Source of the DNA: Promethearchaeota archaeon
GTDB lineage: Archaea > Asgardarchaeota > Lokiarchaeia > Sigyniarchaeales > SOKP01
Direction of reading: 5' to 3'
NCBI GenBank assembly: GCA_008080735.1
Contig: SHMW01000002.1
Span: 1 to 54,274 of the forward strand
DNA: 54,274 nt
Below the pieces are notes generated by a model, which was not told the DNA's origin, did not search any database, and worked only from the letters and a program-made list of their open reading frames with translations. The translations under genes were made by a program, and so were the position numbers. Positions 2,542-31,668 of the stretch are shown here, in pieces; within the stretch, counting starts at the first letter, position 1; every line of letters begins with the position of its first letter.

Positions 2542-3498
2542 TTAAAATGCAATATTCATGAAGAGCTCATCGATCCCTTGACCAGTTTGAGCGGATGTTT
2601 CAAAAAATTGGCAATTGTGCTTCATTGCTATTTCTTCCGCCCTTGTTCTCATGTGTCCTGCATCATCAATAAGATCCACTTTATTTCCGACTAAAATATA
2701 ATTAACGTCTGATTCCTTATTGAATAGATTTGCCTCATCGAACCAATCACTCACATCGTTGAGAGTTGCTTCTTTTGTATAATCAAATACAATCATGATT
2801 GTTTTCGCATCAAGTTTTTGGTAAAAATATTTCCGAATTTTTGCGAAGGTTTTGAGCCCTCCCATATCAAATAAATAGAGAGTAGATTTGATTTGTTGAG
2901 TTATTTGTAATTCCTTCTCCGCAATCGATATTCCGATTGTAGGCTTATACATTTCAGTGAATTTCTGTTTTGTATATAGGCGAGTTAAGGTGGTCTTCCC
3001 TACTTGGGATGACCCAATTACAAGTACATTTTTCACCGAACCACTATCGGAATTATGCGAATTAAAGCGTAATGTTCCATCCTCTAACAATTTTGGCAAA
3101 GCAGTGTCAATTTCTCTGTCATATAAGGCTAATGAGACTTTTTCGGCCACTAAGTAAGAATAAGGAATATATTTATCAATATCAGAATATGGGTCAGCAA
3201 CTAATACAAACAGAGCGGGTACATCTCCCCCCAGTTCAAGATAAAATAACCGAAACTCGTTTGTATCTAAGGTCCCACTTCCAAAAGAAGTTTCTGCAAA
3301 ACGCTTCACTTTGTTCATGGTTTGATCCAAGATTGCCATGATCGCCCCGATTATTTCCTCATCAAATCCCTTGATTGACTTTTGGGCAATGATTAAACCA
3401 TCCACATCTACTATCAGTGCTGCGGTTAATTCAGGTATGTTTTCAATGAAGTTTTCAAGAAGGTTGTCAAGAGTTTCGGTTTTAATCATTTTACTCAC
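2542..3498 (-). CDS. Roadblock/LC7 domain fused to a Rab/Ras-like small GTPase
   Basis: N-terminal roadblock pattern (AALIVDVDGLIIA); G1 GSSQVGKT, G2 YKPTIG, G3 DMGG, G4 NKVD, G5 SAQ; GTG start. Confidence 0.88.
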   Translation of the reverse strand: MSKMIKTETLDNLLENFIENIPELTAALIVDVDGLIIAQKSIKGFDEEIIGAIMAILDQTMNKVKRFAETSFGSGTLDTNEFRLFYLELGGDVPALFVLVADPYSDIDKYIPYSYLVAEKVSLALYDREIDTALPKLLEDGTLRFNSHNSDSGSVKNVLVIGSSQVGKTTLTRLYTKQKFTEMYKPTIGISIAEKELQITQQIKSTLYLFDMGGLKTFAKIRKYFYQKLDAKTIMIVFDYTKEATLNDVSDWFDEANLFNKESDVNYILVGNKVDLIDDAGHMRTRAEEIAMKHNCQFFETSAQTGQGIDELFMNIAF

Positions 3499-3506
3499 GC
3501 AAATTA

Positions 3507-4064
3507 TTAGGTATCTAAAATAGTATTTATCTTATTAATTCTCTTTTGAATATGCTGCATTGAATACTGAATATGCATTTGCATTTCTTTGATTTCTGAG
3601 AGAATTGATTTGATTGTTGAGATTTTCTTGTTAGAAATATGCTCCTTGCTAATTTTACTATTTACTTTATCAAGGGATATTTTTTTTCCTTCTATTTTTA
3701 GTTTCCGAGATTCCCCAGGATAATCTAAATCCATTCGGCCTTCATCAATTTCGCTAACAATAACTTTAAACTCTTCCGGTTCCCGTCCTTGTTTGATTAG
3801 TTCATAGTTGAAATTATAGAATGGCTTTTTGCTTTTCAGTTTACCCGCCCACGAAGATGCGATATATCGATGAAATAACCGGGATTTCGCTCCCGCCCAT
3901 ATCCATATTAAGCTCATATTTTTATCGATAATTAGGTACACTTCTTGAGGGTCAAATATGGTTTCAGGATTCTTTTTAATGTTCTCTCCAACCACTTTAT
4001 AAATATATTTAGTATATTTTTCACTAGCCATTCTTATTTCCCTCTTATATTTCTCCCTTTTCAT
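3507..4064 (-). CDS. Single gelsolin-domain protein with C-terminal coiled coil (true start may be ATG at 4031)
   Basis: Gelsolin-repeat pattern FDPQEVYLII..LIWIWAG..S and IKQGREPEEF; amphipathic heptad helix at the C-terminus. Confidence 0.75.
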   Translation of the reverse strand: MKREKYKREIRMASEKYTKYIYKVVGENIKKNPETIFDPQEVYLIIDKNMSLIWIWAGAKSRLFHRYIASSWAGKLKSKKPFYNFNYELIKQGREPEEFKVIVSEIDEGRMDLDYPGESRKLKIEGKKISLDKVNSKISKEHISNKKISTIKSILSEIKEMQMHIQYSMQHIQKRINKINTILDT

Positions 4065-4135
4065 TAGATAAAGTCATTATTATAATCAAGTCTTCAGATT
4101 TTCAAGAAAAATAATAAAAATAAAATTTGGATGCT

Positions 4136-6085
4136 TTATTGATAGAATTCATCTAAAGCATTCAAAAGCTCATGTAAAGTTTCTATTTGTGGGATCAGGA
4201 TAAATGTGCCTTGAATTTCTATATCAGTAATTATTACATTTGTCGTAATAACTAATGATAATTTTTTCAAGAACCCAATTTCTTGTTTTAACAGATTGAA
4301 TAATTTTTCCGCATTTTCAATGAGCACGTCGGGCGGTTCTGTCATGAAACGAATATCTAAGAGATCTCCGAGAGCAGTCACATAATTGGAGGCTAATATG
4401 TTGCCCAACTCTTCCATTGCACTCTGATATGTATCTGGAAAATCACTAATTGTATCATAGCGTTTGCGAAGGTCAACTTGTTTCTTTTTCTCATCATCAA
4501 CTAAAATAGCTGTCAATTCTATGATATCTCTAACTTCAAAGATCGTTAAAACGGTTGCCCTTGTCTTTCCTTTGACATTACTCCATGAGGTGTAAAGTTT
4601 CTCATTCTTTTGAATTACCTTTTCAGAATATTTGTCTAATTCAACCATCTCGACTGCTGGAATATCTATAGTGACTTTTTTATTAATCATCTTCGCAAGG
4701 GCATTTGCCGCATTCCCAGAACCAATATTACCAACTTCTCTGAGTGCATCTTTCTGACGCTCCGATAAAGCTAAGCTTTTTGCTCCGGCACCTGCTCCTT
4801 TTTCTCCTTTCATTAAAGGTTCATAGCTTATTCCAAGATTCTCAAAAAGATTATACAGTGTATCAAGATCTGGAATAAATAGGAAAACTCCATTAAGTTC
4901 ATAATCGACAACTTGTATTGACGTTTTAATCACCACTATAAAGGTATAGATTGACTCCAATTCTTTTCCTAGAAATCTTCCTAATGAATTTACATCGCTC
5001 ACAGTAAATTCTGGAACACCAGTCATCATTTTAGTATCAGTCAAATCTGCTAACGCTGACGCATAGTGTCCCGCCAATATGTTCCCCATTTCTGTTATTG
5101 TTGATCTTGCATATTCATCAATATCCTCTTTAGATTTCACTTTATCTGGATCTATATCGGAATCTTCGCCTGTGATAGATTTTACCATTTTCATAAGTGG
5201 TGTTAACTCAAATGCTTGGAATATGGTTGATTGAGAAGTGCCCTCAATTTGGGAGAAAATACCACAGACCTTTTGATTTGGACCTCCAAACTGTGCAGCC
5301 AAATTCTCAAATGATATGATGCCTACATTTGTTAGGTCAACATTGATCTTTTTCTTTATAAGTCTAGAAAGCGCAGTAATTGCGTTTCCAGAACCGATAT
5401 TTCCAATCTCCTTGAGCATATCTTCTTGTTCGTCATTTAAGTTAATCTTCTTATCAACATTTCCTGGTTTATCAATGATGTCATAGGTATCCTCGAAAGT
5501 CGAGATAATCTCCTCTTGATCCTTCCTAAAAATTGCCTTCTTTTCCGGTTTGAGAGTAGTAGGTTCTTTTGCCTCTGCTTGTTGTTTTGCTTTTTCCGTT
5601 TGATCTCGTCTATAGTTTTCATTGATATTAAAACTTCTAATAAACGCATCCAGATTTAGTAGAATATAAGTGCTTTCATTAAGAATGCCAATTGCATTAA
5701 TGAATTCAAAATCTAAATCTGTCTCAACAATTTTATTTGTATCGTTGAAAATTGACATTGGCACTTCTTGGACACCGATGACTTCATCAACTAGTATTCC
5801 TAAATTTAGCCCATTTCGCTCTAATAATAGAATTCTTGTGTCCTTATCCATCTCGTAGGTATTTTCTGCTGTGTAGATTTTTCTCCTGAGAGATAATATT
5901 GAATACAGATCGCCTCGTATATCTATCACACCAACAATTGATTTATCCGCGAGTGGAATTGGGATAATTTTTTCACCAGGAATATAAATTTCTTTTACTT
6001 TATTGACCTGTACCAAGTATTTTTCGTTTTTAACCCTAATAATAACGACATTAAGGTTCTTTTTGGTTGATTCTGCTTCGATCAT
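4136..6085 (-). CDS. CheW-CheC-CheC fusion protein
   Basis: N-terminal CheW (IVGVIDIRG, GILVDEVIGV); four CheC ExxN motifs (KEIGNIGSG, TEMGNILAG, REVGNIGSG, EELGNILAS). Confidence 0.92.
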   Translation of the reverse strand: MIEAESTKKNLNVVIIRVKNEKYLVQVNKVKEIYIPGEKIIPIPLADKSIVGVIDIRGDLYSILSLRRKIYTAENTYEMDKDTRILLLERNGLNLGILVDEVIGVQEVPMSIFNDTNKIVETDLDFEFINAIGILNESTYILLNLDAFIRSFNINENYRRDQTEKAKQQAEAKEPTTLKPEKKAIFRKDQEEIISTFEDTYDIIDKPGNVDKKINLNDEQEDMLKEIGNIGSGNAITALSRLIKKKINVDLTNVGIISFENLAAQFGGPNQKVCGIFSQIEGTSQSTIFQAFELTPLMKMVKSITGEDSDIDPDKVKSKEDIDEYARSTITEMGNILAGHYASALADLTDTKMMTGVPEFTVSDVNSLGRFLGKELESIYTFIVVIKTSIQVVDYELNGVFLFIPDLDTLYNLFENLGISYEPLMKGEKGAGAGAKSLALSERQKDALREVGNIGSGNAANALAKMINKKVTIDIPAVEMVELDKYSEKVIQKNEKLYTSWSNVKGKTRATVLTIFEVRDIIELTAILVDDEKKKQVDLRKRYDTISDFPDTYQSAMEELGNILASNYVTALGDLLDIRFMTEPPDVLIENAEKLFNLLKQEIGFLKKLSLVITTNVIITDIEIQGTFILIPQIETLHELLNALDEFYQ

Positions 6086-6120
6086 TATAATCCTCTTTTT
6101 AAATTTTTGATTTTAATTTT

Positions 6121-6984
6121 TTATTTAAATTTATTCTTAAGCATAATTCCTTTCCAAATTAACTCAATTTGAGACTTTCCATCATAAGACTCGGAAAAGA
6201 ACCCTTGCTGCTTATATATCGCTATTTGGCCACCATTGGAGTATTTATAAATATAATCGAGTAAATTTTCTATGCTACTGAAATTAAAACCCGCGACCTC
6301 CATTTCTTTTTCGTTATTGACGAGAACGATCAAGAGGTCTTCTCCATTAAATGGCTTTTCTAATTCATTCCATTCAACCCATAGTTCTTGTTCAACATCA
6401 TTCCCTCTTACAATAAATTTATCATCTATGGGTATATCTCTATAAGTTTTATAGGTGGAAAAAATAACTTTATTAGGAATCTTTCCAATTTCTTTCGAAA
6501 ATTTTGCTATTTTTTCTCCGGCATTAAAATAATATTCTTTATCAAGTATGTAATTACAGTTTATAAAAATATGTCTATTCTCCTTAATTTCTATAATATA
6601 GTCTATAAAATCATCTTTTTTTGTATCCGCTCTTATATGTACCGACTTTATTGAAATATCTTTTTGAGTTTTTAAGAATTTGAAAAATCGCCATTTTATT
6701 GCATCTTTATCATTCTTTTCTTTGCTGATAAATGTTTCATAGATTTTCTTGAATTGATCTTTATTAAGTTTCGAGAGATCCGCATCTTTTTCATTTTTAA
6801 AGTCCACTTCTATGAATGAACCATCGAATGGTGATTTATTCTCTTGTTTTAGTTTTTTTAGGCTAACTTCCCCCAAAAATAGCGCCAATTCCAGTTCTAA
6901 GATATTTGGGACTATTTCTTCAATCAGTGCAAATAAGGTTTCTTTCGATTTATCCAATAAAGTTTTATAATATTGAAAATTCAT
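6121..6984 (-). CDS. Hypothetical protein within the chemotaxis gene run
   Basis: 287-aa ORF with AGAGG upstream and 17/35-nt gaps to neighbours; no confident motif. Confidence 0.75.
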   Translation of the reverse strand: MNFQYYKTLLDKSKETLFALIEEIVPNILELELALFLGEVSLKKLKQENKSPFDGSFIEVDFKNEKDADLSKLNKDQFKKIYETFISKEKNDKDAIKWRFFKFLKTQKDISIKSVHIRADTKKDDFIDYIIEIKENRHIFINCNYILDKEYYFNAGEKIAKFSKEIGKIPNKVIFSTYKTYRDIPIDDKFIVRGNDVEQELWVEWNELEKPFNGEDLLIVLVNNEKEMEVAGFNFSSIENLLDYIYKYSNGGQIAIYKQQGFFSESYDGKSQIELIWKGIMLKNKFK

Positions 6985-7001
6985 TTTTTTTAAACCTCTT
7001 T

Positions 7002-10000
7002 TTAGCTTAATAGGTATGATTCTAATTTTTCTTGATCCATAATTTCTCCATCTTTGCTTTTCACATAATATCGTATTTCTCTTTCTTGATATGGGAGAAT
7101 CGATTCTACTGTGAATGAAATCATATCCGTTCCTTCAATTTCCGACTCCATAATTTCATATTTAGTATTAGCAGAAACAATTTCAAATGATTTAGAAATA
7201 GTATCATTGATGTCAATATCATTAACTTCGATATTTGAATTATTATTAATGATGATGCTTATTGCAAACTCATCAACATCTCTACCTGGAAATATTTCTT
7301 TCCCTATCAATAAATCTCTCCTCTTATGGGCAATATCTAACTTCGGAAGCTTTTCTGTTTCCAGAGACTCGTTCAAGTAATAGAAATTCTCGGGGCTCCG
7401 CTTTTCTTGTGGATAATAATGGGTGACTTCGAGTGGGAATTGATACGTTTTTTTGTGATTTGGTTTAATTGCCTTAAAGGGATATGAAATTTTAAGAAAC
7501 TCATCTACATCAATCAACACTTTTGATTTAATATTATCTAAATTGAGACTAATCTTAACATCGTGAGGAATTGAGTGATCCAGATTGTCAGGCACTACTT
7601 CAATGCTCACATGGTCTGAAATGTCTCTCCCCGAAGAAGTTGATATTTGGAATTGAGTTAGATCTTCTGGAGGAGCAAAATCTGCTGGAATAATATCTTT
7701 TACCATAATCCCTTTCATTGGGGTTGTTCCTATATTTTTAACAGTGATCTTGCTTTGAATTTCCGCTTCTTCAAAGGATTTAATTTCAGATTCAGAGAGC
7801 TTTTTATCCAAATGAATATCGATTATTTCGAATACCGATTCTTGTAATCTTAGATCAATAACAGCATTCTTTTTGACTGAATGAGTAATTGAATATTCTA
7901 GTTTTCTGAAAAATTTTGGTTCATTTTCATCTGCGACTTCCCATTCTTCACTTATAAATTTCTCTTGGGGTGCCAATAATTTTCCCCCATTTGAATTAAA
8001 ATCTATATCTAAATATTTTGTTTCTTTATCCTTATCCAAAACTAATATAGATTTTAATTCCATATCGATCTCACTATTATTTTTAAAAATTAGAGAGCAT
8101 CTCCATTTATTTGGCTCTGTCTCTTTCTCCTTTATCTGCATCGCATGCATCGCATGGGAATAGCCACGGAGGTGATCAATCTCTAAATTTGACATTATTT
8201 GGTTTTTATAAATATATGAAAGTTGAATATTCCCTGTTCCTATCATTTGTCTATTTTTAGGGCTGATACTAGTATATACAATAATTTCTGCTTTCTTTCC
8301 TGGTTCTAAAGAATTTATGGAAAAAATAAGGCTTCCTTTTTGAATTTCCACATCTGAAACCGATGAGCTATCATACTTAAAGTCCCTAAATTCCTCAGAA
8401 AATTGTTTTGCTATCCTTAGATCTTCTACAAGATCCTCTGAAGTATTTTCTATAAAGATTGAATACTTTAACCGATTCTCTTGATTAAATAAAAGAAAAT
8501 AGTTATCTCTTACAAATTCTCCTGTTATTTCATGATATCCTTCAAGAATTTTTTCTTTTCTTTCTTTTTCTTTTTGAGAGATTTCTTCTAATTTTTTATT
8601 GAGCTTATTTTCTTTTTGCTCATTAAGCTCAACAATCTTCGCCCGAAGAGAATTTATTTCAGATTCGACATTTTCTTTCTTTTCTTGCCATTCATCACTT
8701 TTTGTATTAATATTTTTCAAATTCTCTTGATTCTCTTTCAGTTGGGCCTTAAGTTCCTTAATTCGGGCATCATAAGTATCCTTAATTTTTTCAAGATGTG
8801 AAATTAAATTTTTTGTATTTTGGAGCTTTTCTTCAAGAGTTTCAATAGTGTCTTTCTTGGAATTATCGATCTTATTGTTTTGTGATTCCAACTCATTTTT
8901 CTTCTTGTCTTCAAGATCTTCTATATTGTCTTCCAAATCATCGATTTTGTCTTCCAAATCCTTTTGTCTCTCTGATTCCTCATCAGCTTTCTTTTCGGCT
9001 TCGTCAAGCTTTTTTTCAATCTCCTCAAATTGTGTTCGTTTATCGTTGATTTGTACATCAAATTCTTTTTCAACGATATTTATTTTTGCTTCATCTTCAA
9101 TATCTTTAGTCGCTTTTTTCTTCTCCTTTTCCAGGTTTTTAATTTCCTTCTTTTTTTCTTTTAGTTCTGTCTTTAATTTATCTTGTTTTTCTTCCCATTC
9201 TTCTTCTTTTTTCTTTGCCTTTTTATTATTCTCAATGCAATTCTCCATTTCTTTTCTCAATTTCTTTATCTTTGGATCATAGTGATTCAATATGTTTTCT
9301 ATATTCACCGCTTTCTTTTCTGAATATTCTGTCTTCACTTCTGGAATTCTTTCCGTGATCTGTTCCAATTTTTCTTTCGCGTTTTTTAGTTGGGTTTCGG
9401 TCTCTTCTTTAAATTGATTTTTATTAAGATATTTAGAAATGTTTTTTTCTTTGTATTTTTCTTTATCTTCAATTAAACTATCTATTTCTTTCTTCAATAA
9501 TCCTGCTTGATTGAGGAGTTTCTTGTTTTTTTGAGAAAGTTTTGAGATTTTGTCTAAAGCTTCATCTAATTCATTGTTTTTCAGATGTATTTTATCCTCA
9601 ACGGAACTGATTTTATGTCCATAAGACATTTTAATCTTTTTTTTTGTAGTTTCTCTCTTTTCTTGTATCTCTTGTTCAATTTTTTTTAGCTTTTTCTGCT
9701 TTAGCTTTGCTCCTAGATCATCGGTTTGAATATTCATTACTTTAATTTTTTCAAAAACTTTGATTGGATTGACTAAATCCTCAGAATCTTTTATTTGATA
9801 ATTGACTTTTTTATTTGTTTCTGGTTCAAAATTCCCCAGATTGATGATTTTATCTTTTTCTAATGAGAGGTTATCATCGGAACTATAATCTAATTTAACA
9901 TCCCAAATCCTATCTTTCTTTGAATTATTTAGAACGTTTATACTTCCTGTTCCAATAAAATTGATTAATGTACCATTTTTGCTATATTCATATTTTAAAT

Positions 10001-10172
10001 TCTCACTGTTGCTTACGAATACTTCTGATTTGGCAAAACCAAATTGTTTCTCAACATCTGATCTTCGTTCCTTAAGTAGATCAATTTCTTCTACATGTTC
10101 CAAGGGCGCTCCTAAAAATGCAGGAGCTTGACTAGAGACCAATTCATCTTTACTAATTTTTTTAAATCCCAT
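7002..10172 (-). CDS. Large soluble protein: beta-rich N-terminus, ~400-aa Lys/Glu coiled coil, several Ig-like/DUF11-like beta-sandwich repeats
   Basis: 1056-aa ORF; heptad K/E-rich region ~aa150-545; repeats of ITVKNIG..GIMVKDIIP and IIINNNS..DIDINDTI type; no signal peptide or TM helix. Confidence 0.75.
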   Translation of the reverse strand: MGFKKISKDELVSSQAPAFLGAPLEHVEEIDLLKERRSDVEKQFGFAKSEVFVSNSENLKYEYSKNGTLINFIGTGSINVLNNSKKDRIWDVKLDYSSDDNLSLEKDKIINLGNFEPETNKKVNYQIKDSEDLVNPIKVFEKIKVMNIQTDDLGAKLKQKKLKKIEQEIQEKRETTKKKIKMSYGHKISSVEDKIHLKNNELDEALDKISKLSQKNKKLLNQAGLLKKEIDSLIEDKEKYKEKNISKYLNKNQFKEETETQLKNAKEKLEQITERIPEVKTEYSEKKAVNIENILNHYDPKIKKLRKEMENCIENNKKAKKKEEEWEEKQDKLKTELKEKKKEIKNLEKEKKKATKDIEDEAKINIVEKEFDVQINDKRTQFEEIEKKLDEAEKKADEESERQKDLEDKIDDLEDNIEDLEDKKKNELESQNNKIDNSKKDTIETLEEKLQNTKNLISHLEKIKDTYDARIKELKAQLKENQENLKNINTKSDEWQEKKENVESEINSLRAKIVELNEQKENKLNKKLEEISQKEKERKEKILEGYHEITGEFVRDNYFLLFNQENRLKYSIFIENTSEDLVEDLRIAKQFSEEFRDFKYDSSSVSDVEIQKGSLIFSINSLEPGKKAEIIVYTSISPKNRQMIGTGNIQLSYIYKNQIMSNLEIDHLRGYSHAMHAMQIKEKETEPNKWRCSLIFKNNSEIDMELKSILVLDKDKETKYLDIDFNSNGGKLLAPQEKFISEEWEVADENEPKFFRKLEYSITHSVKKNAVIDLRLQESVFEIIDIHLDKKLSESEIKSFEEAEIQSKITVKNIGTTPMKGIMVKDIIPADFAPPEDLTQFQISTSSGRDISDHVSIEVVPDNLDHSIPHDVKISLNLDNIKSKVLIDVDEFLKISYPFKAIKPNHKKTYQFPLEVTHYYPQEKRSPENFYYLNESLETEKLPKLDIAHKRRDLLIGKEIFPGRDVDEFAISIIINNNSNIEVNDIDINDTISKSFEIVSANTKYEIMESEIEGTDMISFTVESILPYQEREIRYYVKSKDGEIMDQEKLESYLLS

Positions 10173-10225
10173 CTAATCCTTACCTCTTTGTATTATTTAT
10201 TATCGTTAAAAAAATTCAATTTTAA

Positions 10226-12313
10226 TTATTGTTCTATTTCTACTAAGCGTACAAGATCCTTCCTAAGGGAAGATATCAGATTTATGACATCTATTATCAA
10301 GCAGATAGAACCGTCACCAGTAATAGCAACACCTAATATGGATTGAAACTTTGAATATTTTGATTTAAACGGTTTAATAACCACTTCCATTTGTTGCAGA
10401 ATTTTATCAACAATGAATATTGCTGAATTGTGCTCATCCTTTTGACATAATATCGCAATTTTCTTTTTAGAATTATCATTGTTTATATTCAATTCTGATG
10501 ATTCATTTTCCGAAGAGAAATCAAAATATTCTCCTAATCTTATTACAGGGACCAATTCATTCGCGACTTTATAATGTTCCACTCCTTTTACATAATCAAT
10601 TTTTTCTCTATCATAGAAGTAAATCTGTTTGATATTATCTATGGGTACAGCAAAGAGATCTCCACCTACTTCGAATAATTGCGCCTTAAGAATTGCTCGT
10701 GTGAATGGGACGTCAATAGAAAATGTAGTTCCTTTACCAGGAGTGGTATAAAGATTAATCGACCCTCCTAATTCTTCTATCTTCTCCTCAACTATCGCTA
10801 AACCCATACCTCTGCCAGAAATTTGATTAGCAGCCCCTAAAGTTGAAAATCCTGGTTTAAAAATCAAATCCTTAAGGTCCTGATCTGTAAGTTTTTCAGC
10901 TTCCTCTGGAGTATATAATCCATTATTCACTGCTTTTCTTCGAATTCCCTCAAAATCTAACCCTCTTCCATTATCTTCCACAGTAATGTTAATTGATCCG
11001 GCTTTTCTTGTGGTTATCAGTTTTAATGTTCCTATTTCATCCTTTCCTTTTCTTTTTCTTTCTTTTGGGGTTTCAATTCCGTGATAAATCGCATTTCTCA
11101 GTAAATGGATAAGAGGGCTATTCAATTCTTCCAAGACGGTACGATCTATTTCCACATCTAAACCTCTAAGAACAAATTTTATCTTTTTCCCCGTATCCTT
11201 TGCAACATCCCTAACTAGTCTCCGATATCTCCTGAAAGTTTTTTCCACTCTCACTAATTTCAGTCGAAACACGATTTCTTGGATTTCTAAGAACAATTTA
11301 TCCATATTATCGAAAACCCGTGTTTCTTCTCTTCCTCTAGTTTCCTTCAATTGCTGGGAGATTTGATTCTTAAGAATAACCAGCTCGCCAAAGTAATCCA
11401 TTAATCTCTCCAGAGTTTCAATATCTACTTTCACTGAAGTTATTGTGCTTAATTCCTCTCCAAAATCATCATCTATTATAGATGAAATTCCTGTCTCAAA
11501 TGTTTCTTCAGCTTGATTGGTTTTTTGAGGTTCAGAAGCTGCCTTTTCTGCGCTAAACTCTTCGACATAACTATAAAATTCATTAGAACTAATTTCTTCT
11601 ATTTCTCTGCTTTCGATTTCTAGAATTTCGTCAATAGTAGCAGCGATTTTATCTTTTGTTTCTTTGGTCATAAAATAGATTTCAAAATCGTTGTCAAAAT
11701 TCCCCTTTTCTAATTTATCGGGGCTTGGGTTACTTGAACAAATCCGCCCAATCTCATTAAGCGCCCTGAATATTATAAATAACCTAACTTTTTTAAAAAC
11801 ACAAGTTGCTTGAATTTCAATTGCGATTTTATAAAAATTATAATTCTCTTTCTTCTCTTTTAATTTTTCTGGTGAAATTGGCTTATAAAACGTAATATCG
11901 TATTCTGACTTTTTATCCGCCTTATAATCTTTGAAAGTTTCTTCAATTTCCTGTAATACTTGTGCGTCTAAGTCTTTCTCGTTCCCTTTTTTGATACTAT
12001 TAACCAAATTCCTAATAACGTCATGGCTCTCAAATAAAAGATTGATATATTCGTCCTTCTTGTCTTTTCTTTTATTATATTTTTTGTTTTCGTCCAGAAA
12101 ATTTTCAAATATATGACAAAATTTAGAGAATCTGTCAAAACCTACCATCGCTGTTGAGCCCTTCAATGTATGGAATGCAAAGTAGAGATTTTGGATAGGA
12201 TCATCATCTTTGAAATTCTCCTCAAGGTCTAAGATATTTTTCTCAACCTTATTTACTAACTCTTCAGCCTCGTCAATAAATAATTTCATCTCTTTATCTT
12301 TTTTCGATGACAT
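10226..12313 (-). CDS. cheA: Chemotaxis histidine kinase CheA
   Basis: Hpt FHTLKG, P2 domain, HLLRNAIYHG, VEDNGRG, IFKPGFST, SGRGMGL, C-terminal CheW-like P5. Confidence 0.97.
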   Translation of the reverse strand: MSSKKDKEMKLFIDEAEELVNKVEKNILDLEENFKDDDPIQNLYFAFHTLKGSTAMVGFDRFSKFCHIFENFLDENKKYNKRKDKKDEYINLLFESHDVIRNLVNSIKKGNEKDLDAQVLQEIEETFKDYKADKKSEYDITFYKPISPEKLKEKKENYNFYKIAIEIQATCVFKKVRLFIIFRALNEIGRICSSNPSPDKLEKGNFDNDFEIYFMTKETKDKIAATIDEILEIESREIEEISSNEFYSYVEEFSAEKAASEPQKTNQAEETFETGISSIIDDDFGEELSTITSVKVDIETLERLMDYFGELVILKNQISQQLKETRGREETRVFDNMDKLFLEIQEIVFRLKLVRVEKTFRRYRRLVRDVAKDTGKKIKFVLRGLDVEIDRTVLEELNSPLIHLLRNAIYHGIETPKERKRKGKDEIGTLKLITTRKAGSINITVEDNGRGLDFEGIRRKAVNNGLYTPEEAEKLTDQDLKDLIFKPGFSTLGAANQISGRGMGLAIVEEKIEELGGSINLYTTPGKGTTFSIDVPFTRAILKAQLFEVGGDLFAVPIDNIKQIYFYDREKIDYVKGVEHYKVANELVPVIRLGEYFDFSSENESSELNINNDNSKKKIAILCQKDEHNSAIFIVDKILQQMEVVIKPFKSKYSKFQSILGVAITGDGSICLIIDVINLISSLRKDLVRLVEIEQ

Positions 12314-12344
12314 TGCAACAATTACCTCAGTTTTTTTTTCCTAT

Positions 12345-12731
12345 TTATTTATTATTTAATAGAGTTCTTTCTAATACTTCCAAAACTTGCTCATTTTTAA
12401 AGGGCTTTTGAATAAAATCTTTTGCTCCTTTTTTGGCAGCTTCCAAAACAAGTGCTTCTTGCCCTAATGCTGAAACGACGATTATTTTCGCATTCTCATC
12501 AAGTTGTAACAATTCCTCGATAGTTTCAATACCGCCTTTTACTGGCATAACCAAATCCATTGTGACAAGATCCGGTTGTACCTCTTGGTATTTTTTAATT
12601 GCCTCTTCTCCGTCTCCTGCTTCTGCAACAACCTCACTGAAATCAGTTTTATTTATTATCTTTTTTAAGATATTTCTGGTAAACTGGGCATCATCTACGC
12701 ACATTATCTTTTTTTTATTATTTTTTGGCAT
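12345..12731 (-). CDS. cheY: Chemotaxis response regulator CheY
   Basis: VDD, TMDLVMP, SALGQ and KPF motifs; 128 aa; adjacent to cheA. Confidence 0.95.
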   Translation of the reverse strand: MPKNNKKKIMCVDDAQFTRNILKKIINKTDFSEVVAEAGDGEEAIKKYQEVQPDLVTMDLVMPVKGGIETIEELLQLDENAKIIVVSALGQEALVLEAAKKGAKDFIQKPFKNEQVLEVLERTLLNNK

Positions 12732-12756
12732 ATTTATCTCCTTTTTTATTAAGTTT

Positions 12757-13347
12757 TTAATTTAAAGATTTAAGTTCTTTTTTTATCATTAATTGCTCAG
12801 TTTCGGTTAAAATTTTGCTTAAGTCCATCAATATTCGTGGTCTGTCCTCAAATTTAATAACACCTTTAATATATTCGATACTGATGCTGGTTTGGAAGAT
12901 CCCCCCCAAATCAACAATATCTTCAGTTTTAATTTGAGAAACATTGTAGATCTTATCCACGTAGAAACCAATATTTCTATTATTGACATTCACAATAATT
13001 ATGTATGTATTTTTGGAGTCTGAATCTTCTTTAGTTTGAGTTGGTGCTTTGGGCTTTTTCTTTTCTTCTCCTTCTTTTTGAGCTAATAGTTCACTTTTAG
13101 TTTTATAAAGGCGATAATCATCTAAATCCAATTTTTTTCGCAGATTTATTACATGGATAATCTCGCCTCTGTAATTATAAATACCATCGATGAAATCTAA
13201 ACTCTTTGGAAGTCTCCTAATTTGCCCTGCTTTGATAATTTCTTTTACATCCAGTAAATCAATTGCGAATTGTTCCCATCCAACTTCAAAAACAATAATA
13301 GAAACGTTTTCTCGCTCCTCATAAATTTCGTTCTGCATTTTTTTCAC
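12757..13347 (-). CDS. cheW: Chemotaxis coupling protein CheW (with charged insert)
   Basis: VKEII, GIYNYRGEIIHVINLR, IGFYVD. Confidence 0.92.
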   Translation of the reverse strand: MKKMQNEIYEERENVSIIVFEVGWEQFAIDLLDVKEIIKAGQIRRLPKSLDFIDGIYNYRGEIIHVINLRKKLDLDDYRLYKTKSELLAQKEGEEKKKPKAPTQTKEDSDSKNTYIIIVNVNNRNIGFYVDKIYNVSQIKTEDIVDLGGIFQTSISIEYIKGVIKFEDRPRILMDLSKILTETEQLMIKKELKSLN

Positions 13348-13365
13348 TTTTGTATTGAATTTATT

Positions 13366-14181
13366 TTATAGTTTAAAATATTGATTTAGTATATCTTCAA
13401 AATCTTCAAATGGAGAAATGTCTCCATTAAAATTCTTTAATTCGTTATCATAATTGCTGAAAAATTCATCAACAATCAAATACATATATCTTTTAAGTAA
13501 TTGATTAACTTTTTCGACAAGATATGCAAAAATAATATTTTTTTTAATTATTACATAAAATCTTTGATTTCCAAATACAATCTCTTTTAAATTCCCTCCC
13601 GATTCCTTTCCAATAATTTCTTTTGAAAAGGTCAATAAGGCAGATATAAATCCACTTATTTGGACATCTTTTTTCGCTAAATTTGCTTTCTTCTTGTCAA
13701 TTTTTGAAAAATATGGACTCCCGGAAGGGTTTAATATAAATATTCCTAACAAACCTTCGCTTCTTGGAATCTCCAAATATTCATTACATGATTCCTTAAC
13801 TTCTCCAGCGTCCATATCGGCGTTATATTGATTAAAAATCTTCCTTGAAACTAAATATAATTTTGTATAATTTACTTCACTTTCCTTATCGTCCATAAAA
13901 ATATTAACTATCTTGTTCTGGTTGCTATCTTCATAAAAATGAATAATAATAATATAATCATCTAAAGGAATAGTCGAATTCCCCTTAGTTTTTTGGGTAA
14001 TTTCACTTTTACATAACTCCATGATGTTTTGGATCAGGGGTACATCGAATCCCTTTTTATAAATAATATCATAATCGTGAGTCTTTCCTTCATTACAGAA
14101 TTTTAACATGCAAAATCCCATTAATTCAATAATGTTTTCCTTAAAGTCCATGTTCGATGCTTTATTTTTCATACCGATCAT
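13366..14181 (-). CDS. Longin-domain protein (C-terminal Mon1/Fuz/TRAPP-type longin; possibly a second degenerate N-terminal longin)
   Basis: IFILNPSGSPYF ... ISGFISALLTFSKEI ... FF.NY...L..FNGDISPFEDFEDIL, the pattern typical of Asgard longin domains. Confidence 0.72.
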   Translation of the reverse strand: MIGMKNKASNMDFKENIIELMGFCMLKFCNEGKTHDYDIIYKKGFDVPLIQNIMELCKSEITQKTKGNSTIPLDDYIIIIHFYEDSNQNKIVNIFMDDKESEVNYTKLYLVSRKIFNQYNADMDAGEVKESCNEYLEIPRSEGLLGIFILNPSGSPYFSKIDKKKANLAKKDVQISGFISALLTFSKEIIGKESGGNLKEIVFGNQRFYVIIKKNIIFAYLVEKVNQLLKRYMYLIVDEFFSNYDNELKNFNGDISPFEDFEDILNQYFKL

Positions 14182-14286
14182 TTTTCTTCAGTTCTAACCC
14201 TTTTTTTGTTAAAATAATGAAAAAAGATTGTGGATAAATAAAATAAAATTCCCACTTTTTTGGTTTAAATTTAAAAAACTTTTTGA

Positions 14287-15393
14287 TTAACTAGCCTCTT
14301 CTAGCTTTATTTTCTTTTTGCTTATCGTTTTGATTTTAGGTTTATCTGCGCTCCCTTTGACTCTTATACCTTCGGGTTCTGATTTGCTTTTTTGTTTTGC
14401 TTTCTTTTTTGTTTTTTTTGCGGTCTTTCCGTGAATATCTAATGATTCTTGTAGCTCCAATGCCAGTTTCTCCAGTCTCCTGCCTGTCGCCGAAATCTCG
14501 TCCATCGAAACTACTTGCTGATCTATTTCTGCTTTTACTTGTTCAAGCGCTCTTTCGTTTACTTCTTCATGCTCTTCGGCCTCTGAGAGCTCTTCTGTGA
14601 CTTCATCAATCGCTTGGACTGTAACTTCGATAAGTTTTTCAATATTTCGAATTTTTTCACTGGAACGTGCCACTGATTTTCTTGATTCTTCTGAAAGTTT
14701 TCGGACCTCATCCGCTACAACTGCGAATCCTCTGCCGTGCTCTCCTGCTCTTCCCGCTTCAATACTCGCGTTCAATGCGAGTAAGTTTGTCTCCTCAGAA
14801 ATACTGGTAATTATATCCATAACATCATCAATATCAGTTGTATGATCTAGAATCTCGTGGGCATTCTTATCAATGCCAGCCGCGTGCCTGTCAACTAATT
14901 TCAATGCTTTGACCTGTCCTTGGGCGGCTTTAACAAGCTTCCCTATTGTATCATCAATCTCGTGGGCATGTCTATCAACTTCCACTGCGCTTGCTTCTAA
15001 TTCTGCCGAGATATTTGCTACATTGATCGCAATCTCTTCCGCATTATCGACTAAATTCTCTAAGGAATGTTCGTGTTCTATGATTCTATTCTCAATAGTG
15101 ACGACAAACCCCATCACCATTATTAATCCTACATAAAACATGCTGAACGCTTCACCCATCATATCGAAAGCTAAAACGTCTGTGGAAAATCCATATTTGT
15201 CCAAGGCATTTGCAAGAGTATACATTGACCCACCGCAAGCAATTAAAAACCAGAAAATATCACTCAATGTTTTTCTTTTGAAATATATCCTCAGAGCTAT
15301 AATTGCAGAAAATATTGCAAAAATGAGAGCAATGAGGTTTAAAGTTCCATCTCTGTAATCTGCCATCAATTCCGCGGATATCTGTAGAAACAT
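14287..15393 (-). CDS. Methyl-accepting chemotaxis protein with 3 N-terminal TM helices and basic C-terminal tail
   Basis: Hairpin-tip signature [32 protein letters not shown]; three hydrophobic segments in aa20-100. Confidence 0.95.
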
Positions 15394-15672
15394 TTAAATT
15401 CCACCTCTTTTCATAAATGCACTATAATATTCATAGAATAGAGCAGATGCAAAGGTAATCATAGTCAACATTATAAATACATGTTCTAGAAGATTTAATT
15501 CCTCTAAGCCAGGAACGGCTTCTAAATTTGTGAATATAAACACTAACCAAATACACAAACCAGCAGGAATAAATTTTAATAGCTCTCTATATCTAATCGC
15601 CGCAGCACCTAAAGAAATAATTGCTATACACATCATAATCAAAACAATGACTTCTACTATTTCAATTGCCAA
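15394..15672 (-). CDS. Small 3-TM membrane protein, first gene of the chemotaxis run
   Basis: 92 aa, three hydrophobic helices; TTG start preceded by GGTGA; stop abuts the MCP ATG. Confidence 0.75.
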   Translation of the reverse strand: MAIEIVEVIVLIMMCIAIISLGAAAIRYRELLKFIPAGLCIWLVFIFTNLEAVPGLEELNLLEHVFIMLTMITFASALFYEYYSAFMKRGGI

Positions 15673-15966: not shown

Positions 15967-16620
15967 ATGATTGCTAAAGACCAAATTAGTCATAATGATG
16001 AGGAGAGTTATGAAAAAGTAACTCTTGAATGTCCTATATGTGGAACTCGTAATAATTTACGCATTCCTTGCAAAATCATTAATGAAAGTAAACAATTAAC
16101 GACTATATCAATACCGAGGGGGCTTGTGTGCGATCATCATTTTCAAGCCTTCGTGGATAAAAACTTTCAAACTCGTGGCTATCAAAAGATTGATTTCGAG
16201 CTTTCCAGTATGGAATTTTATGAACAAAACATAGAACAAACTTCTGGGGATCAGGTGCAAAACCTCTCTTCCATACCAGCGTTCGAAGAAATCCTTAATT
16301 TATTACGCACAGCAGTTAAAGATAAAGACATTTTGGGGAGCGCTATCCTCACGGTAAATGGGAAAGTATTATATTCCTCATTACCAGAAAATACTCTTTT
16401 TAATACGATGAAGGAATTTGAAGTTAGAAACGAGAAAGAATTAGTAGCAGTCCGGCGTATGTTCCTGGAATTGGAAAATCGGATGAAAATTTGTTCTAAC
16501 TACATGGAATTGAATGATGTGAATTTTATTCTTGTCCTAGTTTTTTCTAAGAAAATAAAATTGGGAATGGGAAATTTGTTATTAAAAGATTTGTCGAAAA
16601 AAATTATTGCTAAAGTCTAA
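15967..16620 (+). CDS. Zn-ribbon plus roadblock-like domain protein
   Basis: CPICG...CDHHF metal-binding motif; C-terminal ILGSAILTVNGKVLYS and LGMGNLLL roadblock-like pattern. Confidence 0.65.
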   Translation: MIAKDQISHNDEESYEKVTLECPICGTRNNLRIPCKIINESKQLTTISIPRGLVCDHHFQAFVDKNFQTRGYQKIDFELSSMEFYEQNIEQTSGDQVQNLSSIPAFEEILNLLRTAVKDKDILGSAILTVNGKVLYSSLPENTLFNTMKEFEVRNEKELVAVRRMFLELENRMKICSNYMELNDVNFILVLVFSKKIKLGMGNLLLKDLSKKIIAKV

Positions 16621-20098: not shown

Positions 20099-22060
20099 TT
20101 ATAATTTAATTTCTTTTTTATTGGATCCAAATTGGATAAGGATTCGCTTTTTCTTGATATTCAATTTGATATCTCGAGGGTATGCTCCTCCAATATGTTC
20201 TTTTTGTATAGAAATATTATATTTTTTTAATTCTAACTTTAATTTCTCCAGAATCCGTTCTACCGAATTATATTTTTTATTGAATATCTGAGCCCCACCA
20301 ATTATACACGCAGTTAGTTTTTCTGAAGCTCCATTTATTAACATTTTTTTTGTTAAGAATGGGACACAAAACTGAGCATATTGATGTTTATTGGTTAGCT
20401 CATCTTTTTTCTGGCCCTTTCTTGGTTTCAAATACATTATGTGAGACATAGCATAGATTTGATTCAAATTATCACAGAGAATTAAAATATATGTTGATCC
20501 AATTCCATTTATAGAAATTTTCTTTGGAATGTGTTTTGAATTATCTTTTGAGGAAGATATGACATATTGGCCAAGGGGTAAAATATGGTCCTCCTCTTTG
20601 TATCCATATTTCAAGACTTTAGCCTCTGATATATGATTTTCTGACGATCCTTTTCTGTTTTTGTATTTTTCAAAGTTTTTTATTTTGTGTTGGAATTTTT
20701 CTACTTGCTTTTTGAACATTTCCTTCTCAATACGAAGCAATTCATTTTTCATTTCATAGCTCTCCCATTTCTTTTTGATAAATCTTCTCTCTTTTTCAAA
20801 TAAGAGCAGGGTATTTTCAAAATCTTTTTTCTGTTCTTGAAATTCTTTTTTTTCCTCTTCGAACTTAAGGATAGCTTCATTTAACTTTTTTCTCTGTTGT
20901 TTAAGAAAGAATAGTTCTTTATTTATTCTAGTTCTAAATTTTTCCAATTCTGCTATCTGTTGCTCATAAATTTCTGATTTTGAAGGTTTTGAAAGAATAT
21001 TTGATATATTTATCAAATTTTTAGGTTTTTTAATTGGGTTTGACTTAATAATTTCTTTATCTGGTTCTTCTTCTGGACTTTCCTTTTTTATTGAAATTTC
21101 AGAAGGTTGTAAATCATCATCTTTTTCTTGAAGGCTTATAGTTTTGTACTTATCCATTATCTTGTCATTAATCCTCGTCTCTAAATTTGCCAGATCTTTT
21201 AATCGCTGAATACTCTTTTCATTTCCTTCTTTCAAATTAGGTAATTCCCCTTTTACATAAATATGGTTGGTTGGATCTACTAATTTGAACGTTTTTTGGC
21301 CATTCAATCGCTCCGTTTTTCCCAATATTAAAAAACCCCCATCATTCAAATACGTTTTTAGATTTCTTATTAAATGGTTTCTCGAAAGCAGATTAATATA
21401 AATAATAAAGTTCCGGCATAAAATAATATCGTATTTTTGTGATTTTTCATGGCAGATAGTAATATCTTCATTGATGAATTCTACTTTATTTCGAAGAGCT
21501 TGGTTTATCTGGTATTTTGTTGTTGAATTAGAAATCTTGGTAAAATATTTTTTTAAATATTGAGGGGGTATCTCGTGAAGCGCATGTTTCCCGTAAATCC
21601 CCTTTTTTGCTTTTTTTATTGCTTGAGAATTAATATCGGATGCTACAATTTTATACTCTGGGAAATCAGAATTTTCAGCTTTTAACTCTTCAAATAGAAT
21701 TGCCAATGAATATGGTTCTTCTCCATTTGCACAAGGACAAGACCATACTTTTATTAAGCTATTCTTAGTCAATTGATATTTTTCTAATAACTCCCCAATT
21801 CTCTTAAAAATTTCATAATTTCTGAAGAAATATGAATAATTTATTGTAAAATTGTCTAAGAATCGCTCTATTTCCAAGGGATTCGTCTTAAGATATTCGA
21901 AATATTTTTCTTCTGTCTTTAGATCTAAAGAACGAATTCTGGCCCTTATCCTTTTTTCAATTAATCTTTCTTGATAATATTCGAATTTAATCCCCGTATA
22001 CCTATTTATTTCTTGGAGTATTTTTTCGTAGTAATCTTTCTGTATTTTTATAGAACCAAT
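20099..22060 (-). CDS. cheR: CheR methyltransferase - coiled coil - CheD-like fusion (start uncertain; frame open to 22096, ORF track starts at 21877)
   Basis: In-frame upstream CheR N-domain (RYTGIKFEYYQERLIEKRIRAR..YLKTNP), TINYSYFFRN, WSCPCANGEEPYS, DIILCRN; C-terminal CheD-like GIGST..AMSHIM..IIGGAQIF..HIGG..R. Confidence 0.88.
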   Translation of the reverse strand: MGSIKIQKDYYEKILQEINRYTGIKFEYYQERLIEKRIRARIRSLDLKTEEKYFEYLKTNPLEIERFLDNFTINYSYFFRNYEIFKRIGELLEKYQLTKNSLIKVWSCPCANGEEPYSLAILFEELKAENSDFPEYKIVASDINSQAIKKAKKGIYGKHALHEIPPQYLKKYFTKISNSTTKYQINQALRNKVEFINEDITICHEKSQKYDIILCRNFIIYINLLSRNHLIRNLKTYLNDGGFLILGKTERLNGQKTFKLVDPTNHIYVKGELPNLKEGNEKSIQRLKDLANLETRINDKIMDKYKTISLQEKDDDLQPSEISIKKESPEEEPDKEIIKSNPIKKPKNLINISNILSKPSKSEIYEQQIAELEKFRTRINKELFFLKQQRKKLNEAILKFEEEKKEFQEQKKDFENTLLLFEKERRFIKKKWESYEMKNELLRIEKEMFKKQVEKFQHKIKNFEKYKNRKGSSENHISEAKVLKYGYKEEDHILPLGQYVISSSKDNSKHIPKKISINGIGSTYILILCDNLNQIYAMSHIMYLKPRKGQKKDELTNKHQYAQFCVPFLTKKMLINGASEKLTACIIGGAQIFNKKYNSVERILEKLKLELKKYNISIQKEHIGGAYPRDIKLNIKKKRILIQFGSNKKEIKL

Positions 22061-22206: not shown

Positions 22207-23721
22207 TTAATAATATGATTTCTGAACCAAGAAATCTCTAATTTTATAATTTGGGAGTATTCTATCAACTACTCCCTCTTCGATTGCGAATTTTGGCATC
22301 CCAAACAGAATTGCTGTTTCTTCTGATTCACTAATAGTAATTCCACCATTTTCATGAATCTTTTTCATTCCATTTACGCCATCCTCCCCCATTCCAGTAA
22401 GAAGGATAGCTATAACTTTATTTTTATATATTTCCGAGGCAGATTCAAATAAAACATCCACAGAAGGAACACATGAATTAACTGGTTTTCCTTTGTAAAG
22501 TATAATACATGGGCTTTTTTTTTTAGTGCTAATGCTAATATGTCTTCCACTAGGTGCAAAATATACGGTGCTAGGCCTTAAAATTTCATAATGTTCTGCA
22601 ACTTTTACCTTAATCTCACTATTCTTATTTAAATACTGTGCGAGTGGAGAGATAAAATGTTCATTTAAATGTTGGACGACAATGATTGGATAGGGAAAAT
22701 TTCGTGGTATACCTTGAAGGATCATTCTCAATGCTTTAGGTCCCCCGACACTTGCACCTATTACCACGATTTTAGAATCGATTTTTGGAATCTTTCTCCC
22801 TGATATAGTTTTAAAATATTTTTTAGGTTGGCTATCTTCTATTCTGATTTTTTGAGTTCTGATATCTTTCTTATGCTCAATTTCCTTAAGGATACTCTGT
22901 TTATGAACTGACTTATCAGATTTTTTCTCTCTTCTCTTCTCTTTCCTTAATAGGTTTTGATATAATACATCAATATTATCCTTATCATCAAAAGATGTAC
23001 TTTTACCCCGCTTTTGTATATCGCTTTCAATTTTTTTTGGTTTATCAAGATTTTCATGGAGTCTATTTTTATATTCTTTTTGTAATTCCGATTGCCCTTC
23101 GATATCTTCCTTACTTATTTTATTATCCGTTACTTGTTTAGGTTTTTTTTTATATTCTACATAATTTTCCGCCTTAAAGACATTTTTACTTTGTATTTTA
23201 GAGGGTTTTATCTCTTTAAGATATTTTCCAAATTCAAAAACCTCGTCCACCCACTGTTGCCGAAAAGGTAAATTCCCCGTCGAATCTTTTTCATATTCCA
23301 TCTTACCATAAATTTTATTAAATCGGGAATTTGATGCTAATAAAATCTTCTCAATAAGATTCTTTCTGAAATCAGGGAGTTTTTTCGCACCTAAAGTCCC
23401 AGGTTTCAGTATATAATCAAATGCTCCAATCAATAATGCTTGGACGGACGAATCCAGAGTTTGAGGGCTAATACTCGACAAGATGATCGTGGGTGTAGGG
23501 TTTTCTGCCATGATTCTTCTAAATGCCTCAAGACCGTTTATTTTTGGCATCATTAAATCCAATAGAATTACATCAGGATTTTGATAAATCGCTTTCTTTA
23601 TGGCTTCTTTACCATTTTTGGCAGTTCCAATTAGGACAATCTCATCAGAAGAGCTTAAAATTTCGGAGATTCTTTTCCTTAAGAACGCGGAATCATCAGC
23701 GATTAATACGCGTGTTTTCAA
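22207..23721 (-). CDS. cheB: Chemotaxis methylesterase CheB with extended charged linker
   Basis: Receiver ADDS/DLMMP; esterase triad motifs GASVGG, VVQH, LTGMGEDG; FGMP. Confidence 0.95.
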   Translation of the reverse strand: MKTRVLIADDSAFLRKRISEILSSSDEIVLIGTAKNGKEAIKKAIYQNPDVILLDLMMPKINGLEAFRRIMAENPTPTIILSSISPQTLDSSVQALLIGAFDYILKPGTLGAKKLPDFRKNLIEKILLASNSRFNKIYGKMEYEKDSTGNLPFRQQWVDEVFEFGKYLKEIKPSKIQSKNVFKAENYVEYKKKPKQVTDNKISKEDIEGQSELQKEYKNRLHENLDKPKKIESDIQKRGKSTSFDDKDNIDVLYQNLLRKEKRREKKSDKSVHKQSILKEIEHKKDIRTQKIRIEDSQPKKYFKTISGRKIPKIDSKIVVIGASVGGPKALRMILQGIPRNFPYPIIVVQHLNEHFISPLAQYLNKNSEIKVKVAEHYEILRPSTVYFAPSGRHISISTKKKSPCIILYKGKPVNSCVPSVDVLFESASEIYKNKVIAILLTGMGEDGVNGMKKIHENGGITISESEETAILFGMPKFAIEEGVVDRILPNYKIRDFLVQKSYY

Positions 23722-25286: not shown

Positions 25287-25343
25287 GGATAGATTCATTC
25301 TGAAATCGAGTATTTATAATATATTATTTCTTGGTGAAAGCAA

Positions 25344-26399: not shown

Positions 26400-26424
26400 A
26401 GGCATATGAGAATGGTGTGGAGAA

Positions 26425-27059: not shown

Positions 27060-27066
27060 GTGGTGT

Positions 27067-31002: not shown

Positions 31003-31011
31003 GTTGATATT

Positions 31012-31662: not shown

Positions 31663-31668
31663 AACTAA

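Follow-up and report, generated by a model that had tools for sequence, protein, structure and literature searches.

The window analysed here, a stretch of 54,274 nucleotides (nt) from a Promethearchaeota archaeon of the class Lokiarchaeia (contig 2, positions 1-54274), carries an operon in which chemotaxis (che) genes stand together with eukaryote-like genes. On sequence grounds, it very probably belongs to a functioning chemosensory pathway (CheA/W/Y/B/R/C) of Lokiarchaeia that has an output other than an archaellum. Linkage and co-occurrence make it likely that two further products, a mu-homology-domain (MHD) protein and a protein of 287 amino acids (aa), are dedicated members of this pathway. 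A more tentative reading, which we regard as possible but somewhat doubtful, is that the output of phosphorylated CheY (CheY-P) is read by this pair of MHD protein and putative dead nuclease fold and passed to a gelsolin and a GTPase, which would steer actin-based protrusions.

The source assembly (4.15 Mb, 140 contigs) is 93% complete and 7% contaminated. Genomes of relatives are given as G numbers, their loci as L numbers and contigs of the own genome (G000) as C numbers; the class under study includes Ca. Lokiarchaeum ossiferum (G138). Those homologues that bear a taxon label come from Asgard archaea (Promethearchaeota). The genes of the system are the following:

2542..3498, minus strand: roadblock plus Ras-family small GTPase, 318 aa (Pfam Robl_LC7, E 1.6e-5; Ras, E 3e-34)
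3507..4064, minus strand: one-domain gelsolin (ProGel-like), 185 aa, with a conserved C-terminal helical extension (profile and Atlas structure matches)
4136..6085, minus strand: CheW-CheC-CheC fusion, 649 aa (Pfam CheW and four CheC stretches)
6121..6984, minus strand: 287-aa orphan with a predicted restriction-endonuclease-like (PD-(D/E)xK) fold (model and structure comparison)
7002..10172, minus strand: mu-homology-domain plus immunoglobulin (Ig)-like protein, 1056 aa, predicted cytoplasmic (model of an orthologue)
10226..12313, minus strand: CheA, 695 aa (Pfam Hpt, P2, dimer, HATPase and CheW)
12345..12731, minus strand: CheY, 128 aa (Pfam Response_reg)
12757..13347, minus strand: CheW, 196 aa (Pfam CheW)
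13366..14181, minus strand: 271-aa protein with a C-terminal longin domain (Pfam E 0.057; Atlas)
14287..15393, minus strand: short methyl-accepting chemotaxis protein (MCP), 368 aa, with a membrane N-terminus and no large sensor domain (Pfam MCPsignal)
15394..15672, minus strand: protein with three transmembrane segments (3-TM), 92 aa, abutting the MCP gene (transmembrane prediction)
15967..16620, plus strand: divergent Zn-ribbon protein, possibly with a roadblock-like C-terminus (weak match)
20099..21877, minus strand: CheR-CheD fusion, 592 aa (Pfam)
22207..23721, minus strand: CheB, receiver (REC) and methylesterase domains with a long linker, 504 aa (Pfam)

The Che core and the conservation of the operon

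An earlier note on this DNA, drawn up from the sequence alone, had described eleven consecutive minus-strand genes with gaps of 0-105 nt. All the open reading frames lie where they had been placed, and the ten gaps, recomputed, measure 8, 71, 35, 17, 53, 31, 25, 18, 105 and 0 nt. Its CheA, CheW, CheY, MCP and CheW-CheC-CheC calls are matched by Pfam, and cheB and cheR-cheD, put at a distance of 4-8 kb, were measured at 4.4-8.0 kb from position 15672. A promoter and terminator scan of the locus, based on a bacterial consensus, returned counts at chance level.

Membership of the Che family is seen in CheA, CheW, CheY and MCP with intact phosphotransfer residues, and CheR, CheB, CheC and CheD are also encoded. 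H48 and the N-box of CheA are intact, CheY presents D13, D14, D59 (the phospho-acceptor), S87 and K109, and the four ExGN phosphatase motifs of the CheW-CheC-CheC fusion are present. The closest solved structure to this CheY is that of T. maritima CheY, on which the CheY profile scores 174 bits, compared with 165 on P. horikoshii and 122 on M. maripaludis. The CheD part of the CheR-CheD fusion reads GIGST where the L. ossiferum CheD reads GLGSC; the Cys is missing, and this part is probably not a deamidase. The MCP at 14287..15393 is the only one above the Pfam cut-off in the own assembly. Relatives have 1-21 MCPs, and many of them 5-21 dispersed ones; the idea of an MCP-free pathway was dropped, as 55 of the 58 cheA-positive genomes have MCPs.

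Two variants of the core were observed in relatives. In genus g11 there is a second cheY inside the operon, with AIGQQ replacing the otherwise invariant ALGQE (L044:1582-1968 in G170 and L136:3047-3436 in G175). A degenerate CheA offshoot of 547-571 aa occurs at L115:9862-11544 (G275), L116:8952-10646 (G151), L117:5666-7381 (G163) and L118:2810-4453 (G165); the two copies scanned show the P2 domain twice but lack Pfam matches to Hpt, HATPase and CheW, and stand two genes from an actin-related gene cluster. G165 was counted as cheA-positive solely through its offshoot copy.

Among the genomes searched for CheA, 83 of 400 in the phylum and 44 of the 134 others in the family have it, and a true CheA is present in 52 of 161 Lokiarchaeia genomes (about a third). 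The linkage first noticed in this one genome is conserved in relatives: 40 loci, spread over 10 genera and 3 families, show the order longin-cheW-cheY-cheA-MHD-287aa-cheWCC-gelsolin with little variation. This block is then usually followed by cheR-cheB-cheD-cheC, the roadblock-GTPase gene and a second cheB, so that the eukaryote-like genes of relatives are enclosed by che genes. The direct adjacency of the gelsolin and GTPase genes, as seen in the window, holds in this genus only, while elsewhere cheR-cheB-cheD-cheC usually separates them. Among the testable loci, the order is kept for cheA-MHD in 39/39, for MHD-287aa in 34/34 and for the other pairs in 32/33, 29/30 and 35/35 (the last figure being that of the longin gene directly before cheW), which is more than expected by chance.

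Moreover, the che-type subfamilies are confined to genomes with cheA. The MHD subfamily scoring above 300 bits (46/46), the che-type gelsolin (41/41 orthologues) and the che-specific roadblock-Ras form of about 320 aa (33/33 genomes having it) all fall in cheA-positive genomes, versus 108 cheA-negative genomes of the class. The 287-aa gene, which is single copy and limited to Lokiarchaeia, is present in 47 of 400 genomes and in 0 of the 317 without cheA. The MHD family as a whole is present in 154 of 161 class genomes.

The eukaryote-like genes could be passengers in a block that is simply inherited or deleted together. Asgard genomes are rich in such genes (the own genome encodes about 35 small GTPases and numerous longin-like proteins), and block deletions did occur in G192 and G227, where the stretch from cheW to cheB is deleted and the longin gene directly adjoins the EF-2 paralogue of the flank. 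Nevertheless, this explanation is highly improbable, since the genes are interleaved among che genes, belong to subfamilies specific to che, still have che neighbours where the block is rearranged (G189, G151, G163, G275 and G282) and follow two divergent CheA types.

The MHD/287-aa pair is also found after a divergent CheA (28-32% identical) in G130, G133, G134 and G136, the contig of the last stopping within the MHD gene, and the same CheW-CheC-CheC fusion comes after the pair in the divergent f3 clusters. Orthologues of the gelsolin, the longin protein and the GTPase were not found in G128 (94% complete) or in these four genomes. Because the pair follows the divergent CheA too, and does so without orthologues of the other three, the pair is, judging from these clusters, the core accessory and the deepest-conserved partner of the pathway, and the gelsolin, the longin protein and the GTPase are additions found in one sub-lineage.

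The accessory proteins

The 1056-aa product had been described as a coiled-coil/Ig protein. The Ig part of this description is retained, but the protein is better named a mu-homology-domain plus Ig protein, as the coiled coil is an optional insert and most orthologues (662-680 aa) are without it. The fold was read from a model of the 673-aa orthologue of G170 (predicted local distance difference test, pLDDT, of 81) and not of the window's copy. AP2 mu2 169-435 aligns with this model over 228 residues (Z 17.7, root-mean-square deviation 3.2), covering the complete two-subdomain MHD fold, and mu1, mu3, mu4, delta-COP and SGIP1 also match it (Z 14-17.7), at a sequence identity of 11-14%. Ig-like domains stand after the MHD in the model, and neither a transmembrane segment nor a signal was predicted. 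Sequence profiles of the MHD and longin proteins gave nothing significant against the PDB, with a weak AbpX match at E 0.3. No N-terminal longin domain, as in the mu subunits of AP complexes, was found in the MHD chain, whose model shows a disordered N-terminus of 45 residues ahead of the MHD; the longin of the operon is encoded by a separate gene.

All che-linked MHD copies, very divergent ones included, open with a che-specific peptide of about 25 aa, M[GT]F[KI]x[IVL]xxxE[LI]...[FLI][LI]GxP, which is absent from the two MHD paralogues of the own genome. We take its conserved stretch [IVL]-x-x-[DE]-E-[LI] to resemble the FliM N-terminal peptide. The two paralogues are stand-alone MHD/Ig proteins (C29:9748-11850 and C43:9677-11923), and models similar to the MHD/Ig protein occur in Thorarchaeota and Thermoplasmatota clusters.

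Mu-homology domains serve in cargo sorting and in eukaryotes bind the tails of membrane proteins. This known role would suit a system in which the receptor array is positioned or scaffolded by the non-Che proteins: the MHD protein would sort MCPs or CheA to a site on the membrane, the gelsolin and GTPase would tie the array to actin, and CheY-P would act on an unlinked target. The MHD gene directly after cheA in every testable locus, the near-universal presence of the MHD family in the class, which points to a general role, and a longin paralogue at about 2 kb or less from an MCP gene in 13 genomes would all be consistent with it. However, no other output was found, and putative arrays are formed in L. 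ossiferum (PMC9834061), which does not have the che-type pair, so that we hold this arrangement to be unlikely.

The AlphaFold2 model of the 287-aa protein has a pLDDT of 88. Many PD-(D/E)xK entries are among its top structure matches, the best with a Z of 7.5, which is in the background range of the library, and a Foldseek E of 3.5e-3; the model also resembles Rpb5/YaeQ-like proteins. D128 is invariant, and the next strand reads hydrophobic-x-C with no conserved acid or Lys, so there is no catalytic (D/E)xK motif. Its invariant basic residues are R99, K179, R182 and K283. From the model, the protein is probably a dead restriction-endonuclease-like fold. Pfam and NCBIfam gave only weak matches at most for this protein and for the gelsolin, longin and 3-TM proteins.

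The likeness to nucleases and Rpb5/YaeQ-like proteins and the four invariant basic residues, together with the single MCP of the own genome, could suggest another cellular function, in which the 287-aa protein, as a nucleic-acid binder, would let CheY-P control gene expression or the state of the cell, without any role in motility. This is very unlikely, given that the Z value is one of background, that many relatives have dispersed MCPs and the full CheB/R/C/D adaptation that is typical of taxis, and that the gelsolin and MHD genes would be left unexplained.

The gelsolin call has no Pfam match, but a profile of 29 orthologues against the PDB places 7c2f (Thor ProGel) first with E 3.4e-7, followed by 2DGel and villin, and the Atlas structure matches of the 185-aa protein are gelsolins. 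Lokiactin (C109:3252-4364) and other gelsolins are also encoded in the own genome. Regarding the "roadblock-Rab-like GTPase", Pfam agrees with the roadblock and the Ras family, but it is not a true Rab. Its G1-G5 motifs are intact, with a G3 of DMGGL that does not have the catalytic Gln of DxxGQ, and its C-terminus has no Cys for prenylation, which is also the case in full-length orthologues. At every locus read, the GTPase gene has a che gene or the gelsolin gene as its neighbour, and after rearrangements it remains beside cheB or cheC.

The longin call is sustained for the C-terminal half (Pfam E 0.057; TM-score of 0.80 over 126 residues in the Atlas), the N-terminal half not being covered. 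The longin gene is retained in 4 cheA-negative genomes. Because of its position between the MCP gene and cheW, its survival after che loss and the paralogue near MCP genes, the longin protein is probably a receptor-side (input) partner. The 3-TM protein is probably a receptor partner as well, its gene accompanying MCPs of this type outside the operon too. A separate receptor cassette of 3-TM, 277-aa MCP, HisKA-REC protein and longin paralogue was observed at L123:3306-6638 (G201) and in about 12 similar places. Finally, the divergent gene that had been read as Zn-roadblock is weakly supported as such, with no Pfam roadblock match and a weak match in common with the GTPase protein; it stands beside the operon in about half of the loci and is also kept in cheA-negative genomes.

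Motors and the route of the output

No cheF or arl/fla gene had been seen in the window, and the genome-wide and family searches did not find any either. CheF (PF04283) has 0 matches in the own genome and in the 43 cheA-positive family genomes, with control queries matching and room left for a very divergent CheF. In the own genome there is no family match to archaellin or T2SSF and no match to any L. ossiferum arl gene; its T2SSE match was ruled out as ArlI, being a PIN-ATPase. Pfam and L. ossiferum queries for archaellin and ArlJ-like genes gave 0/43 in the cheA-positive family genomes, where ArlI queries reached only a distant ATPase of 22-28% identity. The L. ossiferum queries were added because Pfam archaellin is insensitive for other Asgard classes (0 matches where ArlI/J-like genes exist), and they do match genomes of those classes. 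The only CheF match, in G133 (L085:4317-5573), was rejected: it is a CheF-LRR fusion cut by the contig edge, and its CheF part has no match in the own genome. G133 has the MHD/287-aa pair and no ArlI/ArlJ match.

Concerning the wider sampling, ArlJ-like genes are present in L. ossiferum and in 26 of 28 cheA-positive genomes of other classes, versus 0 of the 51 other cheA-positive genomes of the class, and strong ArlI-like matches divide the genomes in the same way. L. ossiferum and those 26 genomes lack the 287-aa protein. In a quick CheA tree, one branch parts the group with the pair from that with ArlI/J, with an SH-like approximate likelihood ratio (SH-aLRT) of 98 and a long-branch warning. 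As far as these searches can tell, the MHD/287-aa pair accompanies CheA where ArlI/ArlJ-like genes are missing.

On the other hand, a simple type IV pilus-like locus is present in 101 of 135 family genomes, cheA-positive or not. It encodes a VirB11-type T2SSE ATPase of 720-750 aa (the distant ATPase hit by the ArlI queries), a pilin-like protein of about 140 aa and a platform-like protein of about 507 aa, with an A24 prepilin peptidase nearby, and in most of the family it adjoins rpl3-rpl4-rpl23 (L100-L104, e.g. L100:6844-11143). The own assembly does not contain this locus, and since rpl3, rpl4 and rpl23 are missing too, its absence here is probably an assembly gap; a "no pilus" claim was therefore rejected as unsafe. 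Bacterial Che systems controlling type IV pili are known, and the pathway could control such a pilus in twitching or adhesion, with the MHD/287-aa pair as adaptor to the pilus ATPase. We find this quite unlikely, because the locus does not co-vary with che (it is in 29 of 42 genomes of a genus that has cheA in 2 of the 42), did not appear in the vicinity of the operon at any of the loci read, and would leave the che-specific gelsolin unexplained.

Returning to an output through the MHD/287-aa pair, the MCP, with the 3-TM and probably the longin protein, would signal via CheW and CheA to CheY, and the pair would take the place held by CheF/ArlCDE in other archaea. The pair is more likely the first output step than the GTPase or the gelsolin because in the minimal system (G128; G130, G133 and G134) the pair was found and orthologues of those two were not. 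Chances seem evenly balanced that CheY-P binds the pair, perhaps via the che-specific N-terminal peptide, and that the mu-homology domain puts the signal at a membrane site. The proposal that in one sub-lineage the one-domain gelsolin and the roadblock-Ras GTPase were added and may bias local Lokiactin turnover, hence protrusion growth or retraction, could equally go either way. It is drawn from the in vitro activity of Asgard gelsolins, the one-domain forms of which have an effect on actin that is weak for ProGel and strong for 1DGelX (PMC7444086). Lokiactin is needed for Asgard crawling, a movement that has been filmed in L. ossiferum and M. peptidophilum, with no mention of chemotaxis (PMC13716822). 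The full chain, with CheY-P acting through the pair on the membrane/actin machinery, falls just short of an even chance.

The earlier proposal, in which the Che output goes to a small-GTPase switch and an actin regulator, is thus partly upheld: conserved linkage, che-specific subfamilies and a lineage in which no archaellum or CheF was found speak for it, but the minimal system consists of Che and the pair, with no gelsolin, longin or GTPase orthologue found.

Several points weigh against the full chain. Its support is entirely genomic context, and the actin link is not universal, as the five genomes G128, G130, G133, G134 and G136 indicate. The co-loss is partly one physical event (the block deletion in G192 and G227), so the counts are not independent; moreover, che-linked copies served to build the profiles, and related genomes do not count as independent either. 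The contrast between the pair and ArlI/J runs mostly along class lines, L. ossiferum being the sole contrast within the class, and the pilus-like locus is widespread in the family. Thor ProGel itself binds actin weakly (PMC7444086). In addition, the species in which crawling was filmed are all without this operon, and the crawling of L. ossiferum, one of them, was mostly non-directional (PMC13716822).

Neighbouring genes, related systems and biological meaning

Other genes of the window were also noted. An EF-2 family GTPase (38226-40415, minus strand) delimits the che block of relatives at its far end, and a gene of the LCIB/C-type beta-carbonic anhydrase family (19130-19924, minus strand) adjoins che genes in several of them. 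Two paralogues of about 500 aa (16723-18234 and 34924-36408, minus strand), with a third copy on C16, are often near the che block in this genus. An A/V-type ATP synthase operon occupies 24930-34319 (plus strand). A 785-aa protein (49938-52295, minus strand) with DDRGK, UFM1-E3-ligase-like, PCI winged-helix and weak VPS28 matches looks like a eukaryotic signature protein of ufmylation or ESCRT type.

Compared with known systems, the operon is a member of the Che family that is not archaellum-coupled, and by analogy it may work like Frz-Mgl. With the archaeal CheF/ArlCDE chemotaxis of Halobacterium, Haloferax, Methanococcus and Pyrococcus it shares the Che core with CheC and CheD, a CheA with P2 and no receiver domain, and a single-domain CheY; it differs in that no CheF, archaellin, ArlI or ArlJ was found, in the five lineage-specific genes that the operon contains and in the CheW-CheC-CheC fusion. 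L. ossiferum (PMC9834061, PMC13705601) belongs to the same class and has the Che core and an actin cytoskeleton, but its CheA falls on the other side of the tree, archaellins and ArlI/J/H are encoded, and neither of its two che loci contains the MHD/287-aa pair or the gelsolin. In the Myxococcus Frz-RomR-MglA/MglB system (PMC4316618), surface motility likewise involves a chemosensory pathway tied to a roadblock protein and a Ras-like GTPase; there the MglA-type GTPase is separate from MglB and unlinked to frz, whereas here roadblock and GTPase are fused and encoded in the operon. Actinobacterial conservons and G-protein systems (PMC13343842) also encode a histidine kinase, a roadblock protein and a small GTPase in an operon, but with a Class I-type sensor kinase, no Che proteins, and regulation of metabolism as output.

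At the protein level, the MHD protein has the entire two-subdomain fold of the adaptin mu C-terminal domain (AP1-4, delta-COP, SGIP1) in the same order, unlike which it carries an extra insert and two further Ig-like domains, has no N-terminal longin in the chain and is encoded in a che operon. The gelsolin resembles Asgard ProGel/1DGelX (PMC7444086) in being a single domain without the long-helix Glu of 2DGel and in its C-terminal helical extension, as in 1DGelX; the extension is much shorter here, and the subfamily is che-restricted.

Asgard che genes have been reported in 27 of 97 metagenome-assembled genomes, with putative arrays in L. ossiferum (PMC9834061), archaellum parts and CheF in some Asgard genomes (PMC13705601), and mu C-terminal domains in Asgard genomes without their context (PMC10307638). 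No paper describing the operon, or a che cluster with an Asgard mu-homology protein in it, was found in a search that most subscription papers lie outside of. The system is a real, conserved chemosensory variant that is apparently undescribed.

All cheA-positive Lokiarchaeia genomes except L. ossiferum are without a detectable archaellum. The MHD protein, the gelsolin and the small GTPase of the operon are the best candidates for how such cells steer. The operon also supplies a short list of soluble proteins that could be expressed for in vitro work without culture, and it places an Asgard mu-homology domain, whose fold is elsewhere familiar from the vesicle coats of eukaryotes, in a functional context. 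If the proposed output is true, it would be a third class of chemotaxis output beside flagella/archaella and type IV pili, with directed crawling in an Asgard archaeon, and bacterial-type sensing would be joined to eukaryote-type effectors in close relatives of eukaryotes.

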